Assembly (NCBI GenBank): GCA_000092065.1
Contig: CP000582.1
Reading direction: 5' to 3' (one strand)
Origin: Ostreococcus lucimarinus
Lineage: Eukaryota
DNA: 64,000 nt
Below are positions 35,520-58,074 of the stretch, piece by piece (position 1 is the first letter of the stretch; each line of letters starts with the position of its first letter). The position numbers were made by a program, and so were the translations under genes. The notes below the pieces were generated by a model. It saw only the letters and a list, made by a program, of their open reading frames with translations. It was not told the DNA's origin and did no database searches.

Positions 35520-36086
35520 CTAAAAGTTTGATTCTACAACATCTACGAGGTACTTACTAATGCTAATTTGCTCGCCTTTGCTTGCCTTGCGTTTGTGTTC
35601 ATCGACCATCTTCTCGTGCCAGCCCCTCTTCCTGCTCAACGCCGTATCACCCGCCGCGCCTCTCATAGGAATCGCAACCAGGTTCGACATACCGAGCACA
35701 CCATCGCCGTCCATTTTGCTATTCTTGGACATGTTTTGAGACATCTCTCTGTGTGTCTTCAAGTTGTGCATGAAACGTTGAAGTTTGTCGAGCGCGTCTG
35801 TGATGTGTGCGGCTTCATCAGGCTCGAACGTAAACTCCGGATCGAGTGCGAGTTGTATCATCTCGGTACACGATTGAACCCAGCGTGACTTTACACTCAC
35901 GTTGTCGAAAGCTGCTCCAAGGCTTCTCCGATGAGTTGGTAGAGAGGCTTCAACATTATCTGGAATCGCTGGAGTCACGTGTCTCCTGGAATCGCTGGAG
36001 TCACGTGTCTCCTGGAGCCCGGACGATACGTGAAGAGCATCACCGAACGGATCGTCGAAGGGATCATCGTCGCACTCGTCTTCCAT
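35520..36086 (-). CDS. Hypothetical acidic 188-aa protein encoded inside the TIR element. No recognisable domain.
   Basis: The ORF exactly fills the space between the two TIRs. Its reading frame passes through a 26-bp tandem duplication (35960..36011), which is read in two different frames (ETRDSSDS | RRHVTPAIP). The ORF is therefore either recently frameshifted or fortuitous. Confidence 0.3.
   Translation of the reverse strand: MEDECDDDPFDDPFGDALHVSSGLQETRDSSDSRRHVTPAIPDNVEASLPTHRRSLGAAFDNVSVKSRWVQSCTEMIQLALDPEFTFEPDEAAHITDALDKLQRFMHNLKTHREMSQNMSKNSKMDGDGVLGMSNLVAIPMRGAAGDTALSRKRGWHEKMVDEHKRKASKGEQISISKYLVDVVESNF
35960..36019. repeat. 26-bp direct tandem duplication (ctggaatcgctggagtcacgtgtctc x2 plus a partial third copy)
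   Basis: Two perfect copies at 35960..35985 and 35986..36011 are followed by ctggagcc. The unit length is not a multiple of three, so the duplication shifts the frame of the enclosing ORF. Confidence 0.8.
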
Positions 36087-36445
36087 CCGACCATCGCCCG
36101 CACGCGCGACGACAACTGGCGCGACAGGCGTGGAAAAGACACGAGGCGAACGTGTTTTTCACCAAGGTAGGAATACTCTATTGTAGATGGCACTAAACGG
36201 TGTAAAATACGTATATATCCACGGTTCATGACTCGTCATGTGTGTAGGTACTCTCTAAAGGGGCGATATAAATTTTTCCCCCCGAACGCGTTTTTTGAAC
36301 GCGCCGGGGTTTAGCGAAACGCGATGGCGCAACCGTCGCGTTCGCGCGCCCGCCAGTGCGCGGTGCGGCCGCGGCCGCCCGCGGGTGCGCGTGAGTAGTT
36401 CGAGGTGATTCCGACGCGTCGCGTCCGCACGTCGTCGCGCGCCGA

Positions 36446-40336: not shown

Positions 40337-40672
40337 ACGCACCAGAATTTGCAAACACGGCTACAACTCGATCAGAAATACATTTTGTCACCTGTTCATG
40401 TGCCTCCGCGATGCCCGACGCGCGTGCGCGCCACGACAGCAGCGTGAAAGTGACGGGGATGCGCGACGGGCCGAGCGAGTTCAAAAAAAGGACGAAAGGG
40501 CACCGGATTCGAGGTTTTCGTCGACAGTGGGTCATGACGAGTCACAAACGTTCGACTTAAATATGTAAAATGATAGGAAAACCTTAATGCAATGGGTCAT
40601 AATAGCTGAATATATATGGTTTCTCGTCGTAATGGACAAAAGTTGCTTTCATAAAAATAAGGATGTAGTTGT

Positions 40673-42646: not shown

Positions 42647-45600
42647 GTGACATATGACATCGTATTACAACGTTTTACCCCCACTTCGCAAGGACCGACC
42701 ACCCCATATCCATGTGCTATAAAAGCTAACTCAAAATGGAAGCTCGTACGTCTGAAACGCTTGGCGCTCGAGCGTTTCCGATGTCCGATGTTAACGCGCC
42801 ACAAACCGGAGAGCGTTCAGAATGGTACGCCCCGAAATGAATCACGAATGAGCAATCTAGACACACGCGCTATGTCGAACCCTTACTTTCAGGTCGGGCG
42901 ATGGGACTGCACGGACGAGCTCGAGGGGTGTCAATTCTCCGCGCCACATACGTCGGTGTCAGTTCCTAATTTCGAAGAGATTCAGACCCTTCACTACACC
43001 TGCGTGTATGAAGTGGCGATCACGTGTACACAGCGGCATGATATGCATAACGATGAGTTCGCGCATGTACTTAGTTCTGTCATCGAGCTCGCAAATCGCG
43101 TTGACCTGACACGACTTAGGCAACATCACTCCATAGATAACTTTGCCACACACGTTCTCACTTTTCGGTTCATTCTGGACCTGTTGAGGCAAACTTATCA
43201 GGAATACATCAAAGGAAGCATAGAAAATAATTCGTTTGAGCATGTCGAATTTACTTTCAACAATTGCATGGATGGTACGCACGGAATGGCAACATGCTTT
43301 AAACCGAATAAAAAGCATAGTCACCTTTGTTACATTTTGGATATTTCGCAGGCAGAAAGAAGTTGCAATGGTCGTACTGATGACACAAAATGCGTGCACG
43401 ACAAAATTACTATGAACGATCGCGTTCTTTCCGCGGCTAAGATCCCAGACAACGCAGTGAATAAACAATTCAGTGCTAGTATACTCAATGATGTGTATGG
43501 TTTCGATTCAAGTCTGTTCCATATTTCTCAGTCGGAAACCCTCTGCATGGACCCACAACAACGACTATTACTTCTTGCAGCAGCAGACTTATACCTGAGT
43601 AACACACGTGTTTGTCAACACGACGACTCCTTCTGCGTGCACGTCGGTGTATCGTGGAATGACTTTGAGGAAATTCGCAGAAAGTATAGTGCAGACTTTT
43701 TCTCCACTTATGATTCGACGGGAACATCAATAAGTGTCGCATCGGGTAGAATTGCGTATTATTTTGATTTCAAAGGGTGTGCTGTGACGATTGATACGGC
43801 TTGTTCATCATCTTTGGTTGCGTTGCATCAATCCATGTACGCAGCTGGCTCGCTCCGTGAATCAAGTGCACTTGTATGTGGCATCAACTTGATTTTGACA
43901 ACCACGATGACACATCGATTTCAGCTTGCTGGAATGATGTCTTCAGAGCATCGATGTATGACATTTGATGCACGCGCGGATGGCTACGTCCGGAGTGAGG
44001 CATGCAACATCGTACTCTTACACTTCAATGGCTTCACAAAAACTCATAGGAATGTACTGCGGCATGACGTTCATATGTCATGCGTCGTCAATCAAGATGG
44101 AACATCAACTGGACTTACGGCACCTAATGGAACAGCTCAGCGGAACCTGATGAATGAGTTACTATCGGACGTTTATAACCCTTCAAAACACGTTGGTGCT
44201 AAAATACATGCCCACGGCACAGGTACGCCTCTTGGGGATCCGATAGAGGTGTTTGCTATCAATTCTGCCCTCTCGTTTTCGTCACTGTGCAGGCTGTATG
44301 TGTCAGAAAAGTCGATGCGAGGGCACACAGAACCTGCTTCAGGTCTATGCAGCACCATACTTGCTTTCGTATCAGGTGCACAGTGCAAGCTACATGGTCA
44401 ACCACATTTACAGCAGTTAAACAATCATATACTAACATCGGTTGATGAAAGTATTTTTCAGCGTTCACTGCATTCCAGTTTTCCCTTAACTTCTATGGCG
44501 AGTGTCACCACAGTAAGCTCCTTCGCGTTCCAAGGGACGAACGCAATGGCTTCACTGACATATATCGACAAATGCAGTATTAGAGTGATTCGCAACACGT
44601 CAGGTCTGAGATCTTTGGTCAAGTTGGAGACTGAATCCCCTGTAAGACTCCCGTACACATTTTCTTGCCTTAGCATCGTCAATGGGAAAATGATACAGCT
44701 AACTTCAATGATTCACGACAAAACATTGAAGCGACTTTTGGATCATCGTGTAGCTGATATGCATCTTATGCCAGCCACAGGCCATCTTGAACTTGAAAGA
44801 GAGCTCACGAAGTGCGCTCTCGTAAGGAATGAACCATATCTTCTGACAAAGATCGCATTTATGCTGCCTCTCAAGCTTGATGAAAGCAATCAACTTATCA
44901 CAGAGATGAACACACATGGTCGCTTACGCGTTGGATGTGGCTCTGGCATATCCAATTACTGGTGTAGTACTGCACGACTTCAAATACCAGTAGGACGTGC
45001 CTGGTGCACGGACCGTACTTTTTATCTGACTAGTAAACTCGTTTCTCGGCGTTTCAAAGGTGCGACCGCAACAATAGCAGGGACGACGCCAATTCTCGAT
45101 TCACAAAATGTCGTGAATCCGTGTATCCAGGATGCGAGTCTACAATGCTCTGCATACGTCTTGAACACGTCAGCTTTCGCATCTGATACAACCTACATGG
45201 ACTGCGTATCGTTACTTAAGCTACCAACAACAATTCAAGACGTCATAGTTGTTAATCAGACAGGAAAAATACTTGTTAGATCGACGCATGTTGACATGTT
45301 GCAGAAGACGCAGCATGTGACTGAAAGTAATAACTCTGTCACAAGTAACTCTTCGAGTAACAATAAAACGCAGACATGGATACATCGTTTACTGTGTAAA
45401 GTATCAACCGTACGGATGAAAGCTGGCTTACGCACTCGCACATGCTTGGAACTCGCGAGATTGTTGTACCACGCGAGACAACAAAGAGTGCTGATATCAA
45501 ATATGCAAAACTTGCGTGAAGTAGGCAGTTTACATGCTCCAGAACTGATGCCCATCATGCGCGAAATGGGTCGTAAGTCAATGCAAGATATTAATTCGGC

Positions 45601-48600
45601 TAGTGCCTCTCTTTGCGCGGTTGCGCTGCTGCAGGCTTGCGGCGCTCGTGCGCGCGTTTCCGGCGCCCACGTGCGTGCAAACGACATCGTCCACGAGGAC
45701 GCTTCGGCCGCGCCCGCAGTCTGTGGATCGTGCGTGCGCGCCACCGTGCAATCTTCCGCGCAGGAACGCAGCGAGCCATTGGTGCTGAGTGTCGCGAGCG
45801 CCCCGCACACCGCGCCAGCCCGAGCGTTGCGATCGATCGCCGCCGGGGCGTCGATCGCCGGGGCGCTGTGCGTTGAGCGGCTGCTTCCGGCGTTCGGTCG
45901 CCGGACGCCCGCCGCGTCGCGCGACGGCGCGGCGACGACCACGGCGTCGCCGGCACCGAAAGTCTCGAGCGTGTTCGTGACTGGCGGTCTGGGCGCGTTG
46001 GGTCAGACTTCGGCGGCGTGGTACGCGCATCGAGGCGTTCGCCACGCCTACTTGACTGGTCGCCGCGGGCGCGGAGAGTCCCTTCTGCTGCGATGGTCGT
46101 CGCGCGGCGGTACCGACGTGAGCGCATTGCACGTGCTTCGCGTCGACGCGTGTGCGACCGACGAGGCGTCGTACGGCGGTGCGCGCGCGCACGCGCGCGT
46201 GCGCGCACACGGCGTGCTGCACGCGGGCGGCGTGCTACGCGACTCTTTGACTGCTCGCCAATCCGCGTCGGCCCATCGATACGTGTGGTCGTCCAAAGTA
46301 GTGTCCGCGCACGCATTGCTCCGCCAGTGCGTCGGCGTCGAGCGCGGCGCGCGTCACATCGCGCTGTTCTCGTCGGTGGCGGCGCTGCTGGGGAGTCCAG
46401 GGCAATGCAACTACAGCGCGGCCAACGCCGCGCTGGACGCGCGAGCCGCACACGAGTGGTGCCGCGGGTACGCGGTGCAATCCGTGCAGTGGGGCGCGTG
46501 GGACGGCGCGGGAATGGCGCTGACAAACGCGTCTGTACTCAGGAACGCGCGCACGACAGGCATCGGCGTGCTCGATCCGCAAGCCGGGCTCGGGGCCGTA
46601 CACGTCGCGCTTCAGGGCGCATCAGTGACGGGTCGCTGGCGGGCAATCCAAGGCGTCCTGGCCGTCGTCCCGTTCCAGTGGTCCGTGCTCGCGCGCGCGC
46701 AGCGCTCGCGCGCGCTGATTGCGGAGTACCGCGCGGAGTCGGCGCGGTCGAGCGCTCCAGTCGCCGTCCATCCGGGCGCCGAGGAAGACGCGGCGCGCGA
46801 TGTGTCAGATGAGAGCGTGCGGCAGATCGTGGCCTCCGCCGTGACGCGCGCGCTCGGCAGAGACGTGTCGGTGGACGCGTCGCTCATGGAAGAGGGCCTA
46901 GACTCGCTCGCGGCGGTCGAGCTCGGAGGGGCGTTACAAAAGGAAACGGGCGTGAACATGCCGGCCACGCTGGCATTTGACTACCCGACGATCACCGCGA
47001 TATCTGGGTACCTGAAGGGTGCGATGCTGGCGCGATCGCGTGCGCGCCAATCGAGCGGCGCGGCGTCCAGCGCCGCTCGCACGCGCGCCGCGAGCGGCGC
47101 GGTCGCGCATTCGCGCGACTCGATGCCAGGTATTGCATCCAACGCGCGCGAAATCTTGGGTCTTGCGCCCGTTGTTATGGCCATCAGACGGAGCGTGCGA
47201 CGACTCGACGCGGATGATCGAGAGCCAAAGCCTGCTCGACATGGCGGCTCGGCGTTGTTTTCATCGTTCGTGAGGTGCGTCATGGCAGAGCGAGCCTCTG
47301 AAGATCGCTTCGACACGCCATCGTTGGGCAGGCAGCCGAGCGCGACAGCGCGCGTGGTCTCCTTGACGAAAGCCAGAGATTTCACTACACAAGCTCTCGA
47401 CAGCATGCCGAAATGCAACGAGATTGAGCTGAGCGTCGTCAGCGCTGTGTCGAGTAAGGCATCAGGCGCGCACGATGCCGTGCGTGTGAACAACATGCGA
47501 CATGCGTGCGGCGAAGTGTGTGATCCACAAAGCTCAAAATCGCACGAGTTCGTCGCTCGGCGTCTTGTGCAGTTTGGGTACTTCATCGAGCGCAGCTTGT
47601 TTGACGGGGAGCAGTTCTCCGTAACGGCGCACGAGGCGCGGTTGATGGACCCGCAGCAGCGCGTGCTCCTGGAGAACGCGCTCGCCGCGACGAGTGCGAC
47701 GCCGCACAGCGCGCCGAAGCCAGCCACAGCCGTGTCCGTCGGCGCTTGGACGTCTCAGTACGCAGACATGTGCCGCGTGTACGAGCCAACGCCGGGGCCG
47801 TACTCTGGCGTTGCTTCCGCCTTGAGCGTGCTGTGCGGTCGCGTATCGTACACGTTTGGTATGCGTGGCCCGTCCGTGTGTGTCGACACCGCGTGCTCCT
47901 CCTCGCTCGTGGCCGCGCATGTTGCGAGCTCTCACTTGCGCGATGGATCGTGCGAGGACGCCCTCGTCGCCGGCGTGAGCGTGAACGTCGGCATCGGCAC
48001 CTTCCTCGTGGCCACCGCCGCGAGCATGCTATCGTTCGATGGTCGGTGCAAAACCTTGGATGCCAGCGCCGACGGTTACGCCAAGGGCGAGTGCTGCGTG
48101 GTCCTGCGCGTGTCGGTGGACGGGGCGAGCGCTGGAGCGCCCAAAGCGCCCGATCTTCCAAACGCCGAGTCTCCCTCTCTCGCTCTTCTCGAACAGACCG
48201 GTGTGAACCAGGATGGACGGTCGAGCTCGCTCACCGCACCAAACGGGCCGTCGCAGCAGGCACTCGTGGCCGATGCGCTTCTCCGCTCGGGGCTGCACGG
48301 CGACGCGCTCGGCAGGCTGGAGATGCACGGCACGGGTACTTCGCTGGGAGATCCGATAGAGGTCGGCGCCGCGCTTGAGGTTCTCGCGCCGCCGACGCGC
48401 GCGGACCGGGCGCCGTCCAGGGGCCCCGCGCTCACGCTTGAGGGCGTGAAGCCACGCGCTGGCCACTGCGAACCAGGGGCTGGCGCGGTTGGGTTGCTGT
48501 TTGCGATGGCAAACTTGACGGAGCGAGCCGTCGCGTCCCTCGTCCACCTGCGCCAGCTCAACCCTCACGTCGAGGCCGCGACGCGCCGAAACGCACCGTC

Positions 48601-51600
48601 GCCGCATGCGCGCGCGCCGGTGCTCGCGCGACAAGGCATGCCGCGACCGGATGACGGCGCGTCTGAGGCTGGAGCAGCGGACGCTGCTCGAGCGCGCGTG
48701 CGGCGATCCGGCGTGAGCGGCTTCGCGTTCCAGGGCACAAACGCGCACGCAATCATGGCCCGGGGACCCGGACAGGCGACTGCGCCCGGGTACACGGGAA
48801 GCACGCACACGGCGGCGCGTGCGTGGGAGCGTCAGCGCCACTGGTGCGCGCCAGAACGGCACTGCCTCATCGAGTCCGTGCGCGCTCTGCATCCTCGCGA
48901 GGGAGACTCGAGCGCGTTGGCGCGGTCGTGCGTGCGCCTGTGTCGGTCCGCGTCGCTCGCTGGCATGCTTGATCACGCCGTCGGGCTCCGGACGCTGCTA
49001 CCAGGCACAGCGCACGTCGAGATATGTCGAGCCATGGCGGGCGCGCTGGCAGACCAGCCGCTCGCCGACATCTCGCTGTCGCACGTATCTTTTGCAGCGC
49101 CCCTCGAGCTTCGAGCGCCGACGACCGACGTGCTGTGCGACGTCACGCCGCAAGGCGTGGCCCGCGTGGGCGTGCGCGTGTCGTCGTCCTCTGCCGCCGC
49201 GCCGTTCCTCGCGGGCGCGCTCAGCCGCAGAAGCGCCTCAAGAATTACTGCGTCTCCGGCGCACCTCTCGCGAGGACCGGCGATGCCCGCGCTGGACGTG
49301 CAGCCTTGTGTTCACGGCGCGAGCTGGCTGCGCTCGTCGCAGCGACGAGGCCCGGGCGCGGAGCACCGCGTGTACGGCGACATACGCGCGCGTCAGATGT
49401 CCACGCTGTCGGCTGCGGCGTATCACTCGCCGCCCGCAGTGCTCGATGCCGCGCTGCACGCGCTCAGCGCGTGCGCGCCGCCGCCGGGTAGCGATGCGAC
49501 AGAAGAGAGCCCGCACGTCCCGGCCACGATCGGCGGCGTCCGCACGCGAGGCGGGCACTCGGACATATACCGCGCCCGGTTCGCGCTCGCGACGGCTCCG
49601 CCTGAGCGCGGGGAGCGGAACGCGTCCACGCGCAGATCTCGTCACCACCTGTGGGACTGGTCGAGTCTTTCGGCGGCGCATCGAGGGTGCGTGGTGCACG
49701 CGCTGGAGTCTCGACGACTCGGTGGCGCCGCGGTCGTGCGCTCGCGAGCACAACAGCGCTCGAGGGCACCGCCGCCGCGTCGCGCGGCCGCGCCGCGTGT
49801 GCTTTATGGAGTCGGGCAACAGCGCGCGTGCGGCGCGGCGGATGGCCAGGGCGCGCGTCGACGCTCAACCCTCAACTCGCAGTGCTTTGTGGACGACGCG
49901 TCGCACCGCCGCGAGCTGATGGAGACCCACGCGTCACCATCGATCGCGCAAGGCAGCACGCGAAGCAGCACGCGCGCCTCTCTTTGCGCGGTTGCGCTGC
50001 TGCAGGCTTGCGGCGCTCGTGCGCGCGTTTCCGGCGCCCACGTGCGTGCAAACGACATCGTCCACGAGGACGCTTCGGCCGCGCCCGCAGTCTGTGGATC
50101 GTGCGTGCGCGCCACCGTGCAGTCTTCCGCGCAGGAACGCAGCGAGCCATTGGTGCTGAGTGTCGCGAGCGCCCCGCACACCGCGCCAGCCCGAGCGTTG
50201 CGATCGATCGCCGCCGGGGCGTCGATCGCCGGGGCGCTGTGCGTTGAGCGTCTGCTTCCGACGTTCGGTCGCCGGACGCCCGCCGCGTCGCGCGACGGCG
50301 CGGCGACGACCACGGCGTCGCCGGCACCGAAAGTCTCGAGCGTGTTCGTGACTGGCGGTCTGGGCGCGTTGGGTCAGACTTCGGCGGCGTGGTACGCGCA
50401 TCGAGGCGTTCGCCACGCCTACTTGACTGGTCGCCGCGGGCGCGGAGAGTCCCTTCTGCTGCGATGGTCGTCGCGCGGCGGTACCGACGTGAGCGCATTG
50501 CACGTGCTTCGCGTCGACGCGTGTGCGACCGACGAGGCGTCGTACGGCGGTGCGCGCGCGCACGCGCGCGTGCGCGCACACGGCGTGCTGCACGCGGGCG
50601 GCGTGCTACGCGACTCTTTGACTGCTCGCCAATCCGCGTCGGCCCATCGATACGTGTGGTCGTCCAAAGTAGTGTCCGCGCACGCATTGCTCCGCCAGTG
50701 CGTCGGCGTCGAGCGCGGCGCGCGTCACATCGCGCTGTTCTCGTCGGTGGCGGCGCTGCTGGGGAGTCCAGGGCAATGCAACTACAGCGCGGCCAACGCC
50801 GCGCTGGACGCGCGAGCCGCACACGAGTGGTGCCGCGGGTACGCGGTGCAATCCGTGCAGTGGGGCGCGTGGGACGGCGCGGGAATGGCGCTGACAAACG
50901 CGTCTGTACTCAGGAACGCGCGCACGACAGGCATCGGCGTGCTCGATCCGCAAGCCGGGCTCGGGGCCGTACACGTCGCGCTTCAGGGCGCATCAGTGAC
51001 GGGTCGCTGGCGGGCAATCCAAGGCGTCCTGGCCGTCGTCCCGTTCCAGTGGTCCGTGCTCGCGCGCGCGCAGCGCTCGCGCGCGCTGATTGCGGAGTAC
51101 CGCGCGGAGTCGGCGCGGTCGAGCGCTCCAGTCGCCGTCCATCCGGGCGCCGAGGAAGACGCGGCGCGCGATGTGTCAGATGAGAGCGTGCGGCAGATCG
51201 TGGCCTCCGCCGTGACGCGCGCGCTCGGCAGAGACGTGTCGGTGGACGCGTCGCTCATGGAAGAGGGCCTAGACTCGCTCGCGGCGGTCGAGCTCGGAGG
51301 GGCGTTACAAAAGGAAACGGGCGTGAACATGCCGGCCACGCTGGCATTTGACTACCCGACGATCACCGCGATATCTGGGTACCTGAAGGGTGCGATGCTG
51401 GCGCGATCGCGTGCGCGCCAATCGAGCGGCGCGGCGTCCAGCGCCGCTCGCACGCGCGCCGCGAGCGGCGCGGTCGCGCATTCGCGACGTACAACCATTA
51501 CTCAGCTCCCTCGTCTACGTCTATCATACGTTCCGCATGAAGTCAGCCGACGAACGACTCTTGGCATTAGCGGTCAATATTCTCACGAGCTTAGACACTT

Positions 51601-54600
51601 TAGCTCTGCGGGACCTTCGACCAGTAACTTTGAGGGAGTCCTCTTTGTTCGCATTCATAACTCCACCAAGCCCTTACCCGTGCATCCATATTTCATTGGC
51701 AACTTTTTGCGTTGTGACGAACTCGAGTTCGGCTTGTTTGGCGCACCGCACAGCGAATGGACTACTCTGGACGCGCGGCAGATTCTCTTGATTGAGAGTG
51801 TACACACTATCCAGCTGAACAACAGTTCAGACGTTTCATTGCGCACTCTAGAGACGACGGCTGTTCTTGTTGGAGCACAAGCGGTAGATTCAACTGACGA
51901 GCATAGCGTTGAGATACAGTACAACGCCTACTCTGGCGTTGCTTCCGCCTTGAGCGTGCTGTGCGGTCGCGTATCGTACACGTTTGGTATGCGTGGCCCG
52001 TCCGTGTGTGTCGACACCGCGTGCTCCTCCTCGCTCGTGGCCGCGCATGTTGCGAGCTCTCACTTGCGCGATGGATCGTGCGAGGACGCCCTCGTCGCCG
52101 GCGTGAGCGTGAACGTCGGCATCGGCACCTTCCTCGTGGCCACCGCCGCGAGCATGCTATCGTTCGATGGTCGGTGCAAAACCTTGGATGCCAGCGCCGA
52201 CGGTTACGCCAAGGGCGAGTGCTGCGTGGTCCTGCGCGTGTCGGTGGACGGGGCGAGCGCTGGAGCGCCCAAAGCGCCCGATCTTCCAAACGCCGAGTCT
52301 CCCTCTCTCGCTCTTCTCGAACAGACCGGTGTGAACCAGGATGGACGGTCGAGCTCGCTCACCGCACCAAACGGGCCGTCGCAGCAGGCACTCGTGGCCG
52401 ATGCGCTTCTCCGCTCGGGGCTGCACGGCGACGCGCTCGGCAGGCTGGAGATGCACGGCACGGGTACTTCGCTGGGAGATCCGATAGAGGTCGGCGCCGC
52501 GCTTGAGGTTCTCGCGCCGCCGACGCGCGCGGACCGGGCGCCGTCCAGGGGCCCCGCGCTCACGCTTGAGGGCGTGAAGCCACGCGCTGGCCACTGCGAA
52601 CCAGGGGCTGGCGCGGTTGGGTTGCTGTTTGCGATGGCAAACTTGACGGAGCGAGCCGTCGCGTCCCTCGTCCACCTGCGCCAGCTCAACCCTCACGTCG
52701 AGGCCGCGACGCGCCGAAACGCACCGTCGCCGCATGCGCGCGCGCCGGTGCTCGCGCGACAAGGCATGCCGCGACCGGATGACGGCGCGTCTGAGGCTGG
52801 AGCAGCGGACGCTGCTCGAGCGCGCGTGCGGCGATCCGGCGTGAGCGGCTTCGCGTTCCAGGGCACAAACGCGCACGCAATCATGGCCCGGGGACCCGGA
52901 CAGGCGACTGCGCCCGGGTACACGGGAAGCACGCACACGGCGGCGCGTGCGTGGGAGCGTCAGCGCCACTGGTGCGCGCCAGAACGGCACTGCCTCATCG
53001 AGTCCGTGCGCGCTCTTCATCCTCGCGAGGGAGACTCGAGCGCGTTGGCGCGGTCGTGCGTGCGCCTGTGTCGGTCCGCGTCGCTCGCTGGCATGCTTGA
53101 TCACGCCATCGGGCTCCGGACGCTACTACCAGGCACAGCGCACGTCGAGATATGTCGAGCCATGGCGGGCGCGCTGGCAGACCAGCCGCTCGCCGACATC
53201 TCGCTGTCGCACGTATCTTTTGCAGCGCCCCTCGAGCTTCGAGCGCCGACGACCGACGTGCTGTGCGACGTCACGCCGCAAGGCGTGGCCCGCGTGGGCG
53301 TGCGCGTGTCGTCGTCCTCTGCCGCCGCGCCGTTCCTCGCGGGCGCGCTCAGCCGCAGAAGCGCCTCAAGAATTACTGCGTCTCCGGCGCACCTCTCGCG
53401 AGGACCGGCGATGCCCGCGCTGGACGTGCAGCCTTGTGTTCACGGCGCCATCAGACGGAGCGTGCGACGACTCGACGCGGATGATCGAGAGCCAAAGCCT
53501 GCTCGACATGGCGGCTCGGCGTTGTTTTCATCGTTCGTGAGGTGCGTCATGGCAGAGCGAGCCTCTGAAGATCGCTTCGACACGCCATCGTTGGGCAGGC
53601 AGCCGAGCGCGACAGCGCGCGTGGTCTCCTTGACGAAAGCCAGAGATTTCACTACACAAGCTCTCGACAGCATGCCGAAATGCAACGAGATTGAGCTGAG
53701 CGTCGTCAGCGCTGTGTCGAGTAAGGCATCAGGCGCGCACGATGCTGTGCGTGTGAACAACATGCGACATGCGTGCGGCGAAGTGTGTGATCCACAAAGC
53801 TCAAAATCGCACGAGTTCGTCGCTCGGCATCTTGTGCAGTTTGGGTACTTCATCGAGCGCAGCTTGTTTGACGGGGAGCAGTTCTCCGTAACGGCGCACG
53901 AGGCGCGGTTGATGGACCCGCAGCAGCGCGTGCTCCTGGAGAACGCGCTCGCCGCGACGAGCGCGACGCCGCACAGCGCGCCGAAGCCAGCCACAGCCGT
54001 GTCCGTCGGCGCTTGGACGTCTCAGTACGCAGACATGTGCCGCGTGTACGAGCCAACGCCGGGGCCGTACTCTGGCGTTGCTTCCGCCTTGAGCGTGCTG
54101 TGCGGTCGCGTATCGTACACGTTTGGTATGCGTGGCCCGTCCGTGTGTGTCGACACCGCGTGCTCCTCCTCGCTCGTGGCCGCGCATGTTGCGAGCTCTC
54201 ACTTGCGCGATGGATCGTGCGAGGACGCCCTCGTCGCCGGCGTGAGCGTGAACGTCGGCATCGGCACCTTCCTCGTGGCCACCGCCGCGAGCATGCTATC
54301 GTTCGATGGTCGGTGCAAAACCTTGGATGCCAGCGCCGACGGTTACGCCAAGGGCGAGTGCTGCGTGGTCCTGCGCGTGTCGGTGGACGGGGCGAGCGCT
54401 GGAGCGCCCAAAGCGCCCGATCTTCCAAACGCCGAGTCTCCCTCTCTCGCTCTTCTCGAACAGACCGGTGTGAACCAGGATGGACGGTCGAGCTCGCTCA
54501 CCGCACCAAACGGGCCGTCGCAGCAGGCACTCGTGGCCGATGCGCTTCTCCGCTCGGGGCTGCACGGCGACGCGCTCGGCAGGCTGGAGATGCACGGCAC

Positions 54601-56623
54601 AGGTACTTCGCTGGGAGATCCGATAGAGGTCGGCGCCGCGCTTGAGGTTCTCGCGCCGCCGACGCGCGCGGACCGGGCGCCGTCCAGGCCCCCCGCGCTC
54701 ACGCTTGAGGGCGTGAAGCCACGCGCTGGCCACTGCGAACCAGGGGCTGGCGCGGTTGGGTTGCTGTTTGCGATGGCAAACTTGACGGAGCGAGCCGTCG
54801 CGTCCCTCGTCCACCTGCGCCAGCTCAACCCTCACGTCGAGGCCGCGACGCGCCGAAACGCACCGTCGCCGCATGCGCGCGCGCCGGTGCTCGCGCGACA
54901 AGGCATGCCGCGACCGGATGACGGCGCGTCTGAGGCTGGAGCAGCGGACGCTGCTCGAGCGCGCGTGCGGCGATCCGGCGTGAGCGGCTTCGCGTTCCAG
55001 GGCACAAACGCGCACGCAATCATGGCCCGGGGACCCGGACAGGCGACTGCGCCCGGGTACACGGGAAGCACGCACACGGCGGCGCGTGCGTGGGAGCGTC
55101 AGCGCCACTGGTGCGCGCCAGAACGGCACTGCCTCATCGAGTCCGTGCGCGCTCTTCATCCTCGCGAGGGAGACTCGAGCGCGTTGGCGCGGTCGTGCGT
55201 GCGCCTGTGTCGGTCCGCGTCGCTCGCTGGCATGCTTGATCACGCCATCGGGCTCCGGACGCTACTACCAGGCACAGCGCACGTCGAGATATGTCGAGCC
55301 ATGGCGGGCGCGCTGGCAGACCAGCCGCTCGCCGACATCTCGCTGTCGCACGTATCTTTTGCAGCGCCCCTCGAGCTTCGAGCGCCGACGACCGACGTGC
55401 TGTGCGACGTCACGCCGCAAGGCGTGGCCCGCGTGGGCGTGCGCGTGTCGTCGTCCTCTGCCGCCGCGCCGTTCCTCGCGGGCGCGCTCAGCCGCAGAAG
55501 CGCCTCAAGAATTACTGCGTCTCCGGCGCACCTCTCGCGAGGACCGGCGATGCCCGCGCTGGACGTGCAGCCTTGTGTTCACGGCGCGAGCTGGCTGCGC
55601 TCGTCGCAGCGACGAGGCCCGGGCGCGGAGCACCGCGTGTACGGCGACATACGCGCGCGTCAGATGTCCACGCTGTCGGCTGCGGCGTATCACTCGCCGC
55701 CCGCAGTGCTCGATGCCGCGCTGCACGCGCTCAGCGCGTGCGCGCCGCCGCCGGGTAGCGATGCGACAGAAGAGAGCCCGCACGTCCCGGCCACGATCGG
55801 CGGCGTCCGCACGCGAGGCGGGCACTCGGACATGTACCGCGCCCGGTTCGCGCTCGCGACGGCTCCGCCTGAGCGCGGGGAGCGGAACGCGTCCACGCGC
55901 AGATCTCGTCACCACCTGTGGGACTGGTCGAGTCTTTCGGCGGCGCATCGAGGGTGCGTGGTGCACGCGCTGGAGTCTCGACGACTCGGTGGCCTCACGA
56001 CGAATTCATTTTATCATAGCTTTACGTCTACGCAGGCATATAAGTTGGCTCATATTCCACGGCCAGACATCCTATCGCAGTCTTTCACTTCAATGAAGAC
56101 TATAAATGCTGTCGACAAAGCTAGCAGCACATTTACAGAACGCAGTAGTGATGCGATGGAAATTGTTAACGCCGTGCAACGCGAGATTTTGGAAATTTTA
56201 TCAACATTAACGACCAGTCCTGTAAGTTTAGATGATACACTTGCGAGCCACGGATTGGACTCACTGGGCATTGCATATTTTTTTATTCAAGTTGGCAAAC
56301 GGTTCAATGTTGAAGTGACTGTTGACAGTCTTGGCACGAACACCACAGTCAGTAGTATAGTGCATCAGATATCACAGATGCTTAGTGCAAGGGTGATTTT
56401 CCTACACACCAAGGACCTGGTGCGCGAGCGAAAAGCCGACAGCTCCTCAAGAAGAGGAAGGAGCACTGCGATCACATCGATGGTGTCTGCATACCGTCGA
56501 CACTTGCAGTCAACTGAATTCGAGCCCAAAGCCTGTTTTGCAAGAGGCGTACTTGCTTGCGCAATATTTACTATATTTATCATTGCGTACGGATATCACG
56601 CACACAGATTCGACATGTTTTAG
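42647..56623 (+). CDS. Giant type I modular polyketide synthase, 4658 aa, lacking acyltransferase in every module and lacking a terminal thioesterase. Domain order: N-terminal unknown domain, KS0, DH-like, KR, ACP, KS, DH-like, KR, ACP, KS (N-terminally diverged), KS, DH-like, ACP.
   Basis: A continuous reading frame with four ketosynthase domains. Each has the Cys active site (DTACSSSLVA), the first His (AHGTGT / MHGTGT) and the second His (RGHTEPASG / AGHCEPGAG). Two ketoreductases have Rossmann FVTGGLGALG and the catalytic motif GQCNYSAANAALD. Three carrier domains carry the phosphopantetheine Ser (EEGLDSLAAVEL x2, SHGLDSLGIAYF). There are DH-like segments (LDHRVADMHLMPATGHLE; LDHAVGLRTLLPGTAHVE). 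No GHSxG acyltransferase motif and no TE domain are present. The first ATG in frame is about 42786; the track start is GTG 42647. Internal composition is about 70% GC versus about 45% for the N- and C-terminal parts. Confidence 0.85.
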   Translation: MTYDIVLQRFTPTSQGPTTPYPCAIKANSKWKLVRLKRLALERFRCPMLTRHKPESVQNGTPRNESRMSNLDTRAMSNPYFQVGRWDCTDELEGCQFSAPHTSVSVPNFEEIQTLHYTCVYEVAITCTQRHDMHNDEFAHVLSSVIELANRVDLTRLRQHHSIDNFATHVLTFRFILDLLRQTYQEYIKGSIENNSFEHVEFTFNNCMDGTHGMATCFKPNKKHSHLCYILDISQAERSCNGRTDDTKCVHDKITMNDRVLSAAKIPDNAVNKQFSASILNDVYGFDSSLFHISQSETLCMDPQQRLLLLAAADLYLSNTRVCQHDDSFCVHVGVSWNDFEEIRRKYSADFFSTYDSTGTSISVASGRIAYYFDFKGCAVTIDTACSSSLVALHQSMYAAGSLRESSALVCGINLILTTTMTHRFQLAGMMSSEHRCMTFDARADGYVRSEACNIVLLHFNGFTKTHRNVLRHDVHMSCVVNQDGTSTGLTAPNGTAQRNLMNELLSDVYNPSKHVGAKIHAHGTGTPLGDPIEVFAINSALSFSSLCRLYVSEKSMRGHTEPASGLCSTILAFVSGAQCKLHGQPHLQQLNNHILTSVDESIFQRSLHSSFPLTSMASVTTVSSFAFQGTNAMASLTYIDKCSIRVIRNTSGLRSLVKLETESPVRLPYTFSCLSIVNGKMIQLTSMIHDKTLKRLLDHRVADMHLMPATGHLELERELTKCALVRNEPYLLTKIAFMLPLKLDESNQLITEMNTHGRLRVGCGSGISNYWCSTARLQIPVGRAWCTDRTFYLTSKLVSRRFKGATATIAGTTPILDSQNVVNPCIQDASLQCSAYVLNTSAFASDTTYMDCVSLLKLPTTIQDVIVVNQTGKILVRSTHVDMLQKTQHVTESNNSVTSNSSSNNKTQTWIHRLLCKVSTVRMKAGLRTRTCLELARLLYHARQQRVLISNMQNLREVGSLHAPELMPIMREMGRKSMQDINSASASLCAVALLQACGARARVSGAHVRANDIVHEDASAAPAVCGSCVRATVQSSAQERSEPLVLSVASAPHTAPARALRSIAAGASIAGALCVERLLPAFGRRTPAASRDGAATTTASPAPKVSSVFVTGGLGALGQTSAAWYAHRGVRHAYLTGRRGRGESLLLRWSSRGGTDVSALHVLRVDACATDEASYGGARAHARVRAHGVLHAGGVLRDSLTARQSASAHRYVWSSKVVSAHALLRQCVGVERGARHIALFSSVAALLGSPGQCNYSAANAALDARAAHEWCRGYAVQSVQWGAWDGAGMALTNASVLRNARTTGIGVLDPQAGLGAVHVALQGASVTGRWRAIQGVLAVVPFQWSVLARAQRSRALIAEYRAESARSSAPVAVHPGAEEDAARDVSDESVRQIVASAVTRALGRDVSVDASLMEEGLDSLAAVELGGALQKETGVNMPATLAFDYPTITAISGYLKGAMLARSRARQSSGAASSAARTRAASGAVAHSRDSMPGIASNAREILGLAPVVMAIRRSVRRLDADDREPKPARHGGSALFSSFVRCVMAERASEDRFDTPSLGRQPSATARVVSLTKARDFTTQALDSMPKCNEIELSVVSAVSSKASGAHDAVRVNNMRHACGEVCDPQSSKSHEFVARRLVQFGYFIERSLFDGEQFSVTAHEARLMDPQQRVLLENALAATSATPHSAPKPATAVSVGAWTSQYADMCRVYEPTPGPYSGVASALSVLCGRVSYTFGMRGPSVCVDTACSSSLVAAHVASSHLRDGSCEDALVAGVSVNVGIGTFLVATAASMLSFDGRCKTLDASADGYAKGECCVVLRVSVDGASAGAPKAPDLPNAESPSLALLEQTGVNQDGRSSSLTAPNGPSQQALVADALLRSGLHGDALGRLEMHGTGTSLGDPIEVGAALEVLAPPTRADRAPSRGPALTLEGVKPRAGHCEPGAGAVGLLFAMANLTERAVASLVHLRQLNPHVEAATRRNAPSPHARAPVLARQGMPRPDDGASEAGAADAARARVRRSGVSGFAFQGTNAHAIMARGPGQATAPGYTGSTHTAARAWERQRHWCAPERHCLIESVRALHPREGDSSALARSCVRLCRSASLAGMLDHAVGLRTLLPGTAHVEICRAMAGALADQPLADISLSHVSFAAPLELRAPTTDVLCDVTPQGVARVGVRVSSSSAAAPFLAGALSRRSASRITASPAHLSRGPAMPALDVQPCVHGASWLRSSQRRGPGAEHRVYGDIRARQMSTLSAAAYHSPPAVLDAALHALSACAPPPGSDATEESPHVPATIGGVRTRGGHSDIYRARFALATAPPERGERNASTRRSRHHLWDWSSLSAAHRGCVVHALESRRLGGAAVVRSRAQQRSRAPPPRRAAAPRVLYGVGQQRACGAADGQGARRRSTLNSQCFVDDASHRRELMETHASPSIAQGSTRSSTRASLCAVALLQACGARARVSGAHVRANDIVHEDASAAPAVCGSCVRATVQSSAQERSEPLVLSVASAPHTAPARALRSIAAGASIAGALCVERLLPTFGRRTPAASRDGAATTTASPAPKVSSVFVTGGLGALGQTSAAWYAHRGVRHAYLTGRRGRGESLLLRWSSRGGTDVSALHVLRVDACATDEASYGGARAHARVRAHGVLHAGGVLRDSLTARQSASAHRYVWSSKVVSAHALLRQCVGVERGARHIALFSSVAALLGSPGQCNYSAANAALDARAAHEWCRGYAVQSVQWGAWDGAGMALTNASVLRNARTTGIGVLDPQAGLGAVHVALQGASVTGRWRAIQGVLAVVPFQWSVLARAQRSRALIAEYRAESARSSAPVAVHPGAEEDAARDVSDESVRQIVASAVTRALGRDVSVDASLMEEGLDSLAAVELGGALQKETGVNMPATLAFDYPTITAISGYLKGAMLARSRARQSSGAASSAARTRAASGAVAHSRRTTITQLPRLRLSYVPHEVSRRTTLGISGQYSHELRHFSSAGPSTSNFEGVLFVRIHNSTKPLPVHPYFIGNFLRCDELEFGLFGAPHSEWTTLDARQILLIESVHTIQLNNSSDVSLRTLETTAVLVGAQAVDSTDEHSVEIQYNAYSGVASALSVLCGRVSYTFGMRGPSVCVDTACSSSLVAAHVASSHLRDGSCEDALVAGVSVNVGIGTFLVATAASMLSFDGRCKTLDASADGYAKGECCVVLRVSVDGASAGAPKAPDLPNAESPSLALLEQTGVNQDGRSSSLTAPNGPSQQALVADALLRSGLHGDALGRLEMHGTGTSLGDPIEVGAALEVLAPPTRADRAPSRGPALTLEGVKPRAGHCEPGAGAVGLLFAMANLTERAVASLVHLRQLNPHVEAATRRNAPSPHARAPVLARQGMPRPDDGASEAGAADAARARVRRSGVSGFAFQGTNAHAIMARGPGQATAPGYTGSTHTAARAWERQRHWCAPERHCLIESVRALHPREGDSSALARSCVRLCRSASLAGMLDHAIGLRTLLPGTAHVEICRAMAGALADQPLADISLSHVSFAAPLELRAPTTDVLCDVTPQGVARVGVRVSSSSAAAPFLAGALSRRSASRITASPAHLSRGPAMPALDVQPCVHGAIRRSVRRLDADDREPKPARHGGSALFSSFVRCVMAERASEDRFDTPSLGRQPSATARVVSLTKARDFTTQALDSMPKCNEIELSVVSAVSSKASGAHDAVRVNNMRHACGEVCDPQSSKSHEFVARHLVQFGYFIERSLFDGEQFSVTAHEARLMDPQQRVLLENALAATSATPHSAPKPATAVSVGAWTSQYADMCRVYEPTPGPYSGVASALSVLCGRVSYTFGMRGPSVCVDTACSSSLVAAHVASSHLRDGSCEDALVAGVSVNVGIGTFLVATAASMLSFDGRCKTLDASADGYAKGECCVVLRVSVDGASAGAPKAPDLPNAESPSLALLEQTGVNQDGRSSSLTAPNGPSQQALVADALLRSGLHGDALGRLEMHGTGTSLGDPIEVGAALEVLAPPTRADRAPSRPPALTLEGVKPRAGHCEPGAGAVGLLFAMANLTERAVASLVHLRQLNPHVEAATRRNAPSPHARAPVLARQGMPRPDDGASEAGAADAARARVRRSGVSGFAFQGTNAHAIMARGPGQATAPGYTGSTHTAARAWERQRHWCAPERHCLIESVRALHPREGDSSALARSCVRLCRSASLAGMLDHAIGLRTLLPGTAHVEICRAMAGALADQPLADISLSHVSFAAPLELRAPTTDVLCDVTPQGVARVGVRVSSSSAAAPFLAGALSRRSASRITASPAHLSRGPAMPALDVQPCVHGASWLRSSQRRGPGAEHRVYGDIRARQMSTLSAAAYHSPPAVLDAALHALSACAPPPGSDATEESPHVPATIGGVRTRGGHSDMYRARFALATAPPERGERNASTRRSRHHLWDWSSLSAAHRGCVVHALESRRLGGLTTNSFYHSFTSTQAYKLAHIPRPDILSQSFTSMKTINAVDKASSTFTERSSDAMEIVNAVQREILEILSTLTTSPVSLDDTLASHGLDSLGIAYFFIQVGKRFNVEVTVDSLGTNTTVSSIVHQISQMLSARVIFLHTKDLVRERKADSSSRRGRSTAITSMVSAYRRHLQSTEFEPKACFARGVLACAIFTIFIIAYGYHAHRFDMF
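43500..44570 (+). other. PKS domain: KS0 (ketosynthase, host-like 45% GC codon usage)
   Basis: Product is MDPQQRLLLLAAADLY...AVTIDTACSSSLVALHQSMYAAG...HAHGTGTPLGDPIEV...MRGHTEPASG...SFAFQGTNAMASL. Confidence 0.8.
45607..47119 (+). repeat. PKS repeat unit R1 copy 1 (KR-ACP coding unit, about 1.51 kb, about 72% GC)
   Basis: Begins ctctttgcgcggttgcgctgctgcaggcttgc. It is more than 99% identical to 49980..51486. It contains the KR (FVTGGLGALG ... NYSAANAALDA) and the ACP (GLDSLAAVEL). Confidence 0.85.
47183..49321 (+). repeat. PKS repeat unit R2 copy a (KS + DH-like coding unit, 2139 bp)
   Basis: Runs from catcagacggagcgtgcgacg... to ...gccttgtgttcacggcgc. It encodes IRRSVRRLDADD...MDPQQRVLLENAL...VDTACSSSLVAAHVASSHL...EMHGTGTSLGDPIEV...RAGHCEPGAG...GFAFQGTNAHAIM...LDHAVGLRTLLPGTAHVE...PALDVQPCVHGA. 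It is followed by a 658-bp tail (49322..49979) before R1 copy 2. Confidence 0.85.
49980..51486 (+). repeat. PKS repeat unit R1 copy 2 (KR-ACP)
   Basis: The same sequence as 45607..47119, displaced by 4373 bp. It carries a handful of substitutions (for example PAFGRRTP becomes PTFGRRTP). The many spurious overlapping long ORFs on both strands here (for example 46018..46812 equals 50389..51183) are GC-richness artefacts. Confidence 0.85.
51487..51928 (+). other. Diverged, host-like (about 48% GC) segment inside the PKS repeat array. It encodes an alternative version of the KS N-terminal subdomain.
   Basis: In frame it gives ...CDELEFGLFGAPHSEWTTLDARQILLIESVHTIQL...TAVLVGAQAVDSTDEHSVEIQYNA. This parallels the GC-rich copies (...EARLMDPQQRVLLENAL...TAVSVGAWTSQYADMCRVYEPTPGP) at protein level, but shows no nucleotide identity. 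Confidence 0.6.
51929..53448 (+). repeat. PKS repeat unit R2 copy b (5'-truncated; corresponds to 47801..49321)
   Basis: Identity starts at tactctggcgttgcttccgccttgagc. The first about 620 bp of the unit are replaced by the diverged 45%-GC segment 51487..51928. Confidence 0.85.
53449..55587 (+). repeat. PKS repeat unit R2 copy c (full 2139-bp KS + DH-like unit) fused head-to-tail to copy b
   Basis: The junction ...gtgttcacggcgcc|atcagacggagcg joins the end of copy b directly to the start of the unit. It is followed by a partial tail 55588..55990, which matches 49322..49722. It differs from copy a by a few substitutions (RRLVQFGY becomes RHLVQFGY, SRGPALT becomes SRPPALT, GGHSDIY becomes GGHSDMY). 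Confidence 0.85.
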
Positions 56624-56726
56624 TTACCAACGTCACGGCGGTAGGCTCATTGCCCTTGTAATTCAACTCCGTTCTCAAAAAGTTGTCTGTTAAGTACTTT
56701 GAGCACTGTTCAGCTCTCACCGCTGA

Positions 56727-56792
56727 CTCCCGACAGGAGTTAGCTAAAACTCCTGACAGGAGTTAGCTAAAACTCCTGACAGGAGTTAGCGA
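56727..56792. repeat. Three tandem 22-bp units, each containing a short hairpin (ctcc[c/t]g-a-caggag), between the PKS stop and the next gene
   Basis: The sequence is gactcccgacaggagttagctaaaa ctcctgacaggagttagctaaaa ctcctgacaggagttagcgaaagg. The arms ctcctg/caggag pair across a 1-nt loop. It lies 104 bp after the PKS stop and ends 4 bp before the downstream GTG/ATG. Confidence 0.6.
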
Positions 56793-56798
56793 AAGGTG

Positions 56799-57677
56799 AT
56801 GCCGAGGCGCACATCATTAGCCAACGGCAGCTCGCTGTACGACGGGTTGCGATTTAAGTCGAGCGGGTTCAAGCGTTCGGGCAGGAAAGTGAACTTTTAC
56901 ACGTGTAGTACGATCGACGACTCGGACAGAAACGCGTCCTCGACGGGGAGATGCACGTTCGAGGCGGAGATCCGGCACAGAGCCGCGACGGACGAGTACT
57001 TCATCACCAAGTACGTCGGCCATTCGTTCGGTTGCACCGCGCTCTCGCCCCACATCGACGGGGAAACGCGAGCCGAGCTCGTCGATGACGTGCAAATGCA
57101 AGCCATATCCCTGCAACGAGGTCGCGTCGCTGTACAATCGTGTATCGATTACGTGTTCCGGCGCTACTCGTACGTCGTCGACGAAGCGCCGGCTGCGTCG
57201 TTACTTCAGTGCGTGCGGCGACGAAGTTCGGTGGCCACTCGCAGAGAGGCTCTTAAGCGCTTCGCTCAGACGAAAGTGCGATCGAAATTACAGGGCGAAC
57301 TCATGACCTGCATCGCGCACTCGCGCCAAGTCATAACCTCGTTGAGCCTGACCGAACGCCCGACGTCACGCGACATTCGAAAGTATTATCATGTGTTCGG
57401 ATTGCTGCACACGCACTGCAGTCGTCTTCCGGAGTTCGACTCGCTCGCAACCGTATGGATGGCCGCAGATACGACTAGCAGCGCCGCGCTCATTCATGCG
57501 CTCGAGCTCGGCATCAAAAAATTCGACAACGCACTGCGCACCGTTCGCCCCGCGACTGCCTCACAAACTGAAGCCTTGCACAACGCTCACGGCCATCTTC
57601 CTCCTTACGATCTCAGTGAAGCCGAGGCGTTGACGGCTCTTCGTAGTATAGCGCGTTCTGCCCAAACACGTTCGTAG
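56799..57677 (+). CDS. Hypothetical 292-aa protein with a GHSFG (GxSxG) nucleophile-elbow motif. Candidate alpha/beta-hydrolase or discrete thioesterase immediately downstream of the TE-less PKS.
   Basis: YFITKYVGHSFGCTALSP gives a hydrophobic strand followed by G-H-S-F-G, as in type II thioesterases and lipases. The rest has no recognisable similarity by eye. GC is about 56%, intermediate. The real ATG is at 56799; the track start at 56796 is GTG. Confidence 0.4.
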   Translation: MPRRTSLANGSSLYDGLRFKSSGFKRSGRKVNFYTCSTIDDSDRNASSTGRCTFEAEIRHRAATDEYFITKYVGHSFGCTALSPHIDGETRAELVDDVQMQAISLQRGRVAVQSCIDYVFRRYSYVVDEAPAASLLQCVRRRSSVATRREALKRFAQTKVRSKLQGELMTCIAHSRQVITSLSLTERPTSRDIRKYYHVFGLLHTHCSRLPEFDSLATVWMAADTTSSAALIHALELGIKKFDNALRTVRPATASQTEALHNAHGHLPPYDLSEAEALTALRSIARSAQTRS

Positions 57678-58074
57678 CGAAGCTTCTTTGTTAAAGATGT
57701 CAAACATCGTTAACTATGTCATCTTTCCATAGTTTAAACCTCGTTTGCCTTTTTCACCATCAAGCGAAGCGAACCTATTGGATTTCACAACCCTCGTTGA
57801 CGTGTCACTTGAGGTCCAGCTCAGCTCGCCGTCATCGTCAGGACGCGGAAGAATCACACTGCGTTGCGCGCTGACCGGACTTCAAGAGCAAGAACAAAAT
57901 TGGTCGCTAATCCACAGCCAGTGCAACGATAGCAGTACAGTTCCTCTCTTCCGACAGCTCTGGTGTGTTTCCCAGCTCATGCCTGGCTCAGAGCCGCCGC
58001 CCACCATGGACCGGACGGACATAGCCACGTCTAGAAAACTCAGCCCGGAAGGCACGAGTCAAGGCGACCGTGAA

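Follow-up and report, generated by a model that had tools for sequence, protein, structure and literature searches.

The DNA analyzed here is a 64,000-nucleotide stretch from the alga Ostreococcus lucimarinus CCE9901 (the window), which has a mean GC content of about 45% except in one block of about 70% GC at 45.6-56.0 kb. This block lies inside a single polyketide synthase (PKS) gene, whose complete open reading frame (ORF) runs on the plus strand from 42647 to 56623 and encodes 4658 amino acids. A preliminary description of the window had called the gene a compositional chimera within one frame, and our analysis bears this out. The ORF has low-GC ends (GC 0.45) and a GC-rich core (GC 0.69), and the frame continues across both composition boundaries with no internal stop.

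Pfam searches of the translation return four KS domains (PF00109 plus PF02801), two KR domains (PF08659), three ACP domains (PF00550) and four DH domains (PF21089/PF14765), and they find neither an AT domain (PF00698, E = 0.01 or better) nor a TE domain in the 4658-residue protein. With this domain set, the gene product is an AT-less modular type I PKS of the trans-AT-like algal type. The annotated protein XP_001416177.1, 'polyketide synthase', corresponds to the ORF from residue 133 on, with the annotated coding sequence starting at 43043. In the translation, the first KS (KS0) keeps the catalytic cysteine and two histidines (DTACSSS, HGTGT, KSMRGH), and the repeated KS domains carry the catalytic motifs DTACSSS, HGTGT and RAGHCEPG. 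Carrier-protein and DH motifs can be read as well (LDSLAAVEL, LDSLGIAYF, HAVGLRTLLP), DSL being the phosphopantetheine-attachment serine motif.

A GC-rich repeated core inside one reading frame

The gene begins with a low-GC unique N-terminal part (42647-45604; GC 0.453, GC3 0.44, where GC3 is the GC content of third codon positions) that contains KS0 (Pfam match at about 43442-44374), followed by a degenerate DH, DH0. Repeat A1 (45605-47115; GC 0.71) comes next; it contains KR (about 45968-46504) and ACP (about 46829-47014) and is 99.8% identical to repeat A2 (49976-51486), which is likewise KR-ACP. A 64-bp connector (47116-47179), present in one copy in the window and in two copies in metagenome contigs L009 and L002, leads to repeat B1 (47180-49726; GC 0.68). 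B1 comprises an inter-module linker, KS (about 47549-48550) and DH (about 48965-49594), and is 99.6% identical to repeat B3 (53447-55993). From the DH of B1 to the KR of A2 runs a GC-rich (0.73) segment of 249 bp (49727-49975), with one copy in the window. A2 is followed by a low-GC segment, here called the relic (51487-51925; GC 0.494), which consists of an ACP-KS linker and a divergent KS N-terminal subdomain, and then by repeat B'2 (51926-53448), which holds a KS core starting at 'YSGVASAL' and the N-terminal part of a DH. B'2 is 99.7% identical to 47797-49320 and to 54064-55587. B3, again linker-KS-DH, borders the low-GC unique C-terminal part (55994-56623; GC 0.444), with an ACP (about 56186-56365) and a hydrophobic tail. 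At the B'2/B3 junction (53447), the KS-DH copy ends inside the DH and is joined directly to the next linker-KS; because no KR-ACP lies between B'2 and B3 in the reference sequence, one KS would be without a carrier protein of its own.

The core as a whole (45605-55993) has GC1/GC2/GC3 of 0.72/0.60/0.78, compared to 0.49/0.43/0.44 in the N-terminal part and 0.44/0.44/0.45 in the C-terminal part. Both edges are abrupt. In a scan of 200-bp windows, GC stays at 0.39-0.48 as far as 45599 and takes values of 0.68-0.76 from 45600 on; at the right edge it drops from 0.72 (55800-55999) to 0.415 (56000-56199). Measured in 300-bp steps, GC3 follows a step function, with 0.74-0.84 within the core and 0.37-0.54 outside. 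Self-comparison places the outer repeat boundaries at 45605 and 55993/55994, and these are the positions of both composition steps. Within the gene, repeated DNA has GC 0.694 and unique DNA 0.474. The repeat copies are 99.6-99.8% identical, so the earlier claim of a core built of near-identical repeats stands, with high GC following the repeats exactly. GC skew in the core is small (magnitude at most about 0.13), and AT skew is as low as -0.42 at 47800-47999 and -0.43 at 54000-54199.

The relic is 439 bp long, in frame with its flanks, with a GC3 of about 0.5. In the hybrid KS, the PF00109 alignment starts within the relic (at residue 77 of a segment starting at 51485) and covers profile positions 68-244. 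About 70 residues of the relic therefore encode a highly divergent version of the KS N-terminal subdomain. This agrees with the preliminary description, which had taken about 440 bp here for a diverged version of the KS N-terminal subdomain that escaped homogenization; what we find is a divergent subdomain outside the homogenized tract. The relic alone gives no Pfam match, and BLASTP against the N-terminal version of the GC-rich KS is not significant (E = 0.26); its homology to KS is at the motif and profile level only. No DNA similarity to the relic was found elsewhere in the window, no contig carrying it was found in the JGI metagenome scan, and a protein search with the relic gave no match. 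The segment is present in annotated XP_001416177.1 and in one ENA contig (L013). The equivalent region of the O. tauri ortholog is 34% identical to the relic over 64 amino acids (E = 5e-8), but the same O. tauri segment matches the GC-rich version about equally well (30%, E = 3e-7), and orthology between the relic and the O. tauri N-terminal subdomain is thus not established. Upstream of the annotated start, positions 42880-42955 (ORF residues 78-102) resemble the relic in its KS N-terminal motif (48% over 25 amino acids, E = 8e-4) and could be a second decayed KS fragment.

Junctions and genomic setting

Misassembly of the outer junctions, a concern raised in the preliminary description, is ruled out by independent assemblies. 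The low-to-high GC junction at 45605 recurs in four independent metagenome contigs (L003, L004, L008 and L009, with at least 99.8% identity), and the high-to-low GC junction at 55993/55994 recurs in two (L008 and L009). Among the internal junctions, the one between the end of repeat A and the relic is found in ENA contig L013, and those between the relic and B'2 and between B'2 and B3 are seen in the reference sequence only. L013 (k141_662492) contains a chimeric join at about 395-425 via an Illumina adapter (AGACGTGTGCTCTTCCGATCT). A shifted conversion boundary at the relic in this contig is ruled out, since the join passes through the adapter (GTGCTCTTCCGATCT) and is an assembly chimera.

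The relic is missing in two contigs, L009 and L002, whose arrangement is simply one of two modules. In L002 (JGI 3300047157, a 360-kb contig), a 768-bp part of the low-GC DH0 region (44837-45604) is missing as well, and one extra base is present. This deletion ends exactly at the start of repeat A and splits the PKS into two called genes, and after the second KR-ACP the contig continues with an ordinary linker-KS and no relic. The one- and two-module versions in L008 and L009 may be collapsed short-read assemblies of 99.7%-identical repeats rather than proven alleles, and the L002 arrangement is more credible as an allele than either. Real structural polymorphism of the O. lucimarinus array is plausible, because such variation has been reported for O. 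tauri (bioRxiv 10.1101/2025.04.21.649811).

The kinase, separase and Utp6 proteins encoded in the flanks are exact matches to O. lucimarinus CCE9901 proteins, and we take the contig with the PKS gene to be O. lucimarinus chromosome 2. In Mamiellales, a 'big outlier chromosome' includes a low-GC sub-region, BOC1, where recombination is suppressed and which is a candidate mating-type locus (PMC8557840; PMC5498103). Giant type I PKS genes are reported to be conserved in BOC1 and to vary in structure (bioRxiv 10.1101/2025.04.21.649811). Outside the core, the window has GC 0.42-0.49, and the genes adjoining the PKS have GC3 of 0.41-0.45 by codon-position count. An ArgRS gene lies at 3243-5231, and ArgRS is named among the genes trapped in the mating-type region (PMC5498103). 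Given the low GC, the presence of ArgRS and the literature assigning the PKS to BOC1, we place the locus in BOC1, the candidate mating-type region, with the PKS gene among low-GC3 housekeeping genes in a low-GC sub-region.

This placement reverses one premise of the preliminary description, which had regarded the 45% GC flanks, KS0 and the C-terminal ACP as host-like. The Ostreococcus genome has GC 0.60 and a mutational equilibrium of 0.36, and its mating-type region is 9-17% lower in GC, a drop that has been attributed to loss of GC-biased gene conversion (gBGC) (PMC8557840); evidence for gBGC has been presented in O. tauri (PMC5498103). With a genome of about 60% GC, the 45% flanks, which lie in low-GC BOC1, are therefore the atypical part, while the 70% core is closer to the genome norm, which it exceeds.

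Two other patches of raised GC lie in the window. A 5.2-kb block at 35430-40598 (GC 0.526 versus 0.45 in its flanks) holds a DDE_Tnp_4 transposase ORF (36446-38239) and an XPG-like nuclease ORF (38231-40354), and its left edge carries an 86-nucleotide inverted repeat pair (35433-35518 and 36192-36277). The block is missing in contig L004, where an unrelated 62-bp filler is found instead, and contig L003 departs from the window again around 36959-37218. A GC-rich patch at 56745-57778 (0.553) contains an ORF (56796-57677, GC3 0.68) with no Pfam match, and at its left edge is a 23-bp tandem repeat in three copies (56726-56794). Contig L010, from a related lineage, is about 90% identical on either side of this patch but does not have it.

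Algal ancestry and concerted evolution of the modules

The preliminary description had considered two foreign sources for the core, namely horizontal acquisition of an actinobacterial-like PKS and a mosaic of foreign modules grafted onto a native scaffold. Neither agrees with the relatives that we find. The top matches of the GC-rich KS-DH unit are Mamiellales PKSs (an Ostreococcus-like metagenome protein at 67%, O. tauri at 62% and Bathycoccus at 50%), whereas its best bacterial matches, actinobacterial PKSs among them, have 33-39% identity. Over the KS core, O. tauri is 78% identical, P0054 (the Ostreococcus-like metagenome protein) 75% and the repeated KS of Bathycoccus 59-61%, and repeat A1 is 72% identical to O. 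tauri XP_022840662.1. In a neighbor-joining KS tree (bootstrap values for the native clades 100/91/99), an Ostreococcus clade (100%) includes the GC-rich KS and is joined to the Bathycoccus repeated KS (91%). The phylogeny that had been suggested as a check thus puts the GC-rich KS with Ostreococcus and Bathycoccus and not in a bacterial clade, and transfer from actinobacteria is rejected, with bacteria at no more than 39% against 59-78% for Mamiellales KS.

A scan of 185,579 prokaryotic genomes gave a single match, L014 (PBDU01000024.1), a 29.9-kb contig labelled as a Methanobacteriota metagenome-assembled genome (MAG). Its content is the end of the orthologous algal gene, KR-ACP-linker-KS-DH followed by the C-terminal ACP and hydrophobic tail, and it is very probably a mis-binned eukaryotic contig from a related Ostreococcus. 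Judged by these sequence relationships, the GC-rich modules are native, not foreign. Besides the same locus, no relative of the module closer than 78% (KS core) was found in the protein database, although this database seemingly has few or no representatives above about 1500 amino acids and a long paralog could be missed.

KS0 and the GC-rich KS share 29% identity and are old paralogs, and not the unconverted and converted copies of one recent KS that the preliminary description had supposed. The closest non-self relative of KS0 is the first KS of the Bathycoccus BOC1 PKS (40%), with weak grouping and a long branch in the tree. Orthologous PKS loci are found in Bathycoccus (L006, L007 and L011, in 36%-GC surroundings, with orthologous KS0 and repeated KS) and in the related Ostreococcus (L014). 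The combination of KS0 with repeated modules is older than the split between Ostreococcus and Bathycoccus, and the reading as foreign modules grafted onto a native scaffold is rejected.

The array copies evolve together. We compared variants among nine module copies from four sources, and several variants are common to the copies of one genome yet differ between genomes (unit positions 1626 and 3447; 3285, 3376 and 3393). This sharing within genomes and difference between genomes indicates that the copies evolve in concert, by conversion or unequal exchange.

Comparison with orthologous loci had been proposed in the preliminary description. At 59% amino acid identity, L014 has the same order (KR-ACP-linker-KS-DH, then C-terminal ACP) and the same boundary between module and C-terminus, so this arrangement is old. 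However, its module GC3 is only about 0.55 (0.39 in the C-terminus), and Bathycoccus shows no GC3 rise. The GC3 of 0.78 in the O. lucimarinus array is the highest among the sampled relatives, with L005 and L012 at about 0.60 and L014 at about 0.55. By protein comparison, the O. tauri ortholog has conserved cores (72-78%) around a divergent linker that is rich in AT-coded residues. In Bathycoccus L006, L007 and L011, the KS cores are 95-100% identical but the N-terminal subdomains only 30%, with the boundary in the same place as in Ostreococcus. The shared boundary suggests that conversion tracts stop at a conserved point or that selection favors distinct KS N-termini.

In the domain cores, we counted 31 lineage-specific replacements for O. 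lucimarinus (8 GC-ward, 14 AT-ward), 60 for O. tauri (17 and 27) and 75 for L014 (18 and 42). The drift is thus AT-ward in all three lineages and slowest in O. lucimarinus. In the O. lucimarinus module, the amino acid changes are AT-ward or balanced and fewer than in the relatives, and these modules evolve about twofold more slowly than their orthologs.

Origin of the compositional contrast

As the best explanation of these observations, although a tentative one that we would put somewhat short of probable, we propose that GC-biased conversion between the repeats slows AT-ward decay in an otherwise non-recombining region, and that the core is a case of GC retention. The KR-ACP-KS-DH modules form a tandem array in which frequent unequal exchange and gene conversion keep the copies almost the same. 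The surrounding region lacks a homologue with which to recombine, so the repeats would be the sole DNA of the region that regularly forms heteroduplex. GC-biased repair of this heteroduplex would remove the common GC-to-AT mutations, and the same repair may also spread AT-to-GC changes across the array. The array would thereby keep its GC-rich composition (GC3 about 0.78), while the single-copy parts (KS0-DH0, the C-terminal ACP and the relic) would have become as AT-biased as their surroundings (GC3 about 0.44). A stronger form of this proposal, in which GC-biased conversion within the array is the only recombination in an ancient, never-recombining region and shields the PKS modules from the AT-ward degeneration of their single-copy neighbors, is possible, but we hold it still more loosely.

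Two features expected under gBGC are present. Conversion is ongoing, with copies 99.6-99.8% identical and variants common within a genome, and GC is raised most at synonymous sites (GC3 of 0.78 versus 0.44). Also in favor of the proposal are the base-pair match between composition and repetition, the age of the arrangement, the slowest AT-ward change in O. lucimarinus and an array GC3 above that of every sampled relative. Locus identity, native ancestry, concerted evolution and the exact match of repeats with composition are established here; that the conversion is GC biased, and that this bias causes the composition, is what we infer.

Several observations weigh against the proposal. The single-copy 249-bp segment at 49727-49975 is as GC-rich (0.73) as the repeats, and no second copy was found in the other contigs examined. 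The linker at 47180-47560, the least constrained part of the repeat, has a lower GC3 (0.65) than the domains, whereas simple gBGC predicts the reverse. Among 15 variants between copies that could be polarized by majority rule, 10 are GC-to-AT and 5 AT-to-GC; a back-calculated expectation from mutation alone is about 4:1 toward GC-to-AT at 70% GC, so the observed ratio is less skewed, with n too small for significance. The Bathycoccus BOC1 arrays are equally homogenized (99.3-99.9% identical), but their GC3 is 0.338 in repeats and 0.309 in unique DNA, and the GC excess of the repeats is confined to codon positions 1 and 2. Bathycoccus is accordingly ruled out as an exact replicate of the GC pattern, its contrast being non-synonymous only, and concerted evolution in BOC1 does not by itself raise synonymous GC. 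The earlier idea of repeat-driven GC thus survives insofar as high GC tracks the repeats in O. lucimarinus, but repetition alone is insufficient. The amino acid replacements fit retention of an ancestral GC-rich state. Inflation, which the preliminary description had proposed, is not demonstrated, and the AT-ward or balanced changes, together with their lower number, favor retention.

A lasting GC difference needs either biased repair or recent arrival, because an unbiased homogenized array should decay as fast as single-copy DNA. Under recent arrival, the modules would derive from a paralogous PKS located on one of the standard 60%-GC chromosomes. Ectopic conversion or transposition would have copied them into the old BOC1 PKS scaffold, and they would then have been amplified and would not yet have decayed. 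There are two other type I PKS genes in O. lucimarinus, and standard chromosomes of O. tauri carry PKS genes (PMC4661987; PMC5498103). The other GC-rich patches of the window are insertion/deletion polymorphisms (35430-40598 missing in L004, 56745-57778 in L010), and both the high GC of single-copy 49727-49975 and the Bathycoccus arrays without a GC3 rise speak for recent arrival as well. We nevertheless regard recent arrival by this route as rather doubtful. The nearest relative outside the same locus is only 78% identical in the KS core, with the caveat on long proteins in the database given above; the junction between module and C-terminus is common to L014 at 59% amino acid identity; the O. 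tauri ortholog has the same conserved cores and divergent AT-coded linker; and KS0 with repeated KS is also found in Bathycoccus. Moreover, the GC3 of the array (0.78) is above that of all sampled relatives and above that of young insertions (0.56-0.68). Foreign origin or artifact is a far weaker contender still and is scarcely credible here. Its appeal is that 70% GC and an Ala/Arg-rich protein resemble an actinobacterial PKS, and that actinobacterial PKSs are among the matches at 33-39% identity. However, actinobacteria of 70% GC are expected to have a GC3 near 0.9, unlike the GC2 of 0.60 with a GC3 of only 0.78 seen here. The closest relatives are Mamiellales PKSs, the sole match in bacterial and archaeal genomes is the archaeal-labelled MAG contig with the orthologous algal gene, and misassembly or contamination is countered by the independent assemblies that reproduce both outer junctions.

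The array could instead be a recombining island, which pairs and converts with the array of the opposite mating-type haplotype and is subject, as a small pseudo-autosomal patch would be, to the GC-biased conversion of ordinary meiosis. Some gene families of the mating-type region group by species rather than by mating type (PMC8557840), and the GC3 of the array is at or above the genome norm, as such pairing would allow. The sharp match between composition and intragenic repeat boundaries is more simply explained by exchange within the array, however, and we consider an island improbable. We give similarly little credence to a selective origin, in which the codon usage, mRNA properties or protein composition of the catalytic modules would be under selection and constraint on the unique parts would be relaxed. 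The Bathycoccus contrast between repeats and unique DNA, which is wholly in GC1 and GC2 and thus in amino acid content, is what such selection would leave; KS0 lies on a long branch, and the O. lucimarinus modules evolve about twofold more slowly than their orthologs. Yet the O. lucimarinus contrast is largest at synonymous sites, and KS0 is low in GC although its catalytic Cys and both His are kept. Codon-level selection in particular is unlikely, because the BOC1 genes that adjoin the PKS are reported to be highly expressed despite their low GC3 (bioRxiv 10.1101/2025.04.21.649811).

Relation to known systems

The PKS gene is already annotated and its compartment is well studied; the new element is the sharp compositional contrast within the gene. 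A survey by Shelest et al. (2015) lists three O. lucimarinus PKSs, with 14, 4 and 4 modules, and describes the near-identical modules of Ostreococcus PKSs as module duplications (PMC4661987). The gene studied here shares family and compartment with the giant BOC1 PKSs of Mamiellales, which are likewise AT-less, with near-identical modules and structurally variable alleles (bioRxiv 10.1101/2025.04.21.649811; PMC4661987). Neither these two sources nor PMC8557840 and PMC5498103 mention gene conversion or a within-gene GC mosaic of these PKS genes, and we found no description of the within-gene GC contrast in the searchable literature.

The best reading of this pattern is that it adds one more case to a known phenomenon, in which conversion between repeats counters decay in non-recombining DNA. 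GC-biased conversion between repeats in such DNA is known from the palindrome arms of Y chromosomes, ampliconic W-linked genes, rDNA arrays and histone gene families. In those systems, as in the array, repeats without crossing-over are homogenized, GC-richer and slower to decay than their single-copy surroundings. Here, by contrast, the repeats are modules within a single reading frame in the candidate mating-type locus of a haploid alga, the bias is one that we infer, and the sister genus Bathycoccus has homogenized arrays without a synonymous GC rise. A second parallel is conversion in bacterial assembly-line PKSs, including GRINS, where modules of one synthase are homogenized, tract ends fall inside domains and hybrid KS domains arise (PMC8256042). 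Those systems are bacterial and their repeats have intense nucleotide skews; the small GC skew reported here comes from a generic skew profile.

If GC-biased conversion within the array is correct, one reading frame would contain its own internal control, in which single-copy parts have decayed and repeats a few base pairs away keep or exceed the GC content of the recombining genome. How strong the conversion bias is could then be measured in Mamiellales, for which we know of no laboratory crosses, without crosses and without crossing-over. PKS regions also stand out by raised CpG methylation and micrococcal nuclease (MNase) coverage (bioRxiv 10.1101/2025.04.21.649811). GC-rich composition might contribute to these signals, and biased conversion may thus help to account for the distinct appearance of PKS regions in methylation and nucleosome maps. 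A practical lesson is that calling DNA 'foreign' by its local composition misleads in genomes with outlier compartments. Under biased conversion, the array would be a unicellular, within-gene counterpart of Y-chromosome palindromes, and conversion among its modules would provide a mechanism for the persistence and diversification of large secondary-metabolite genes in the outlier region.

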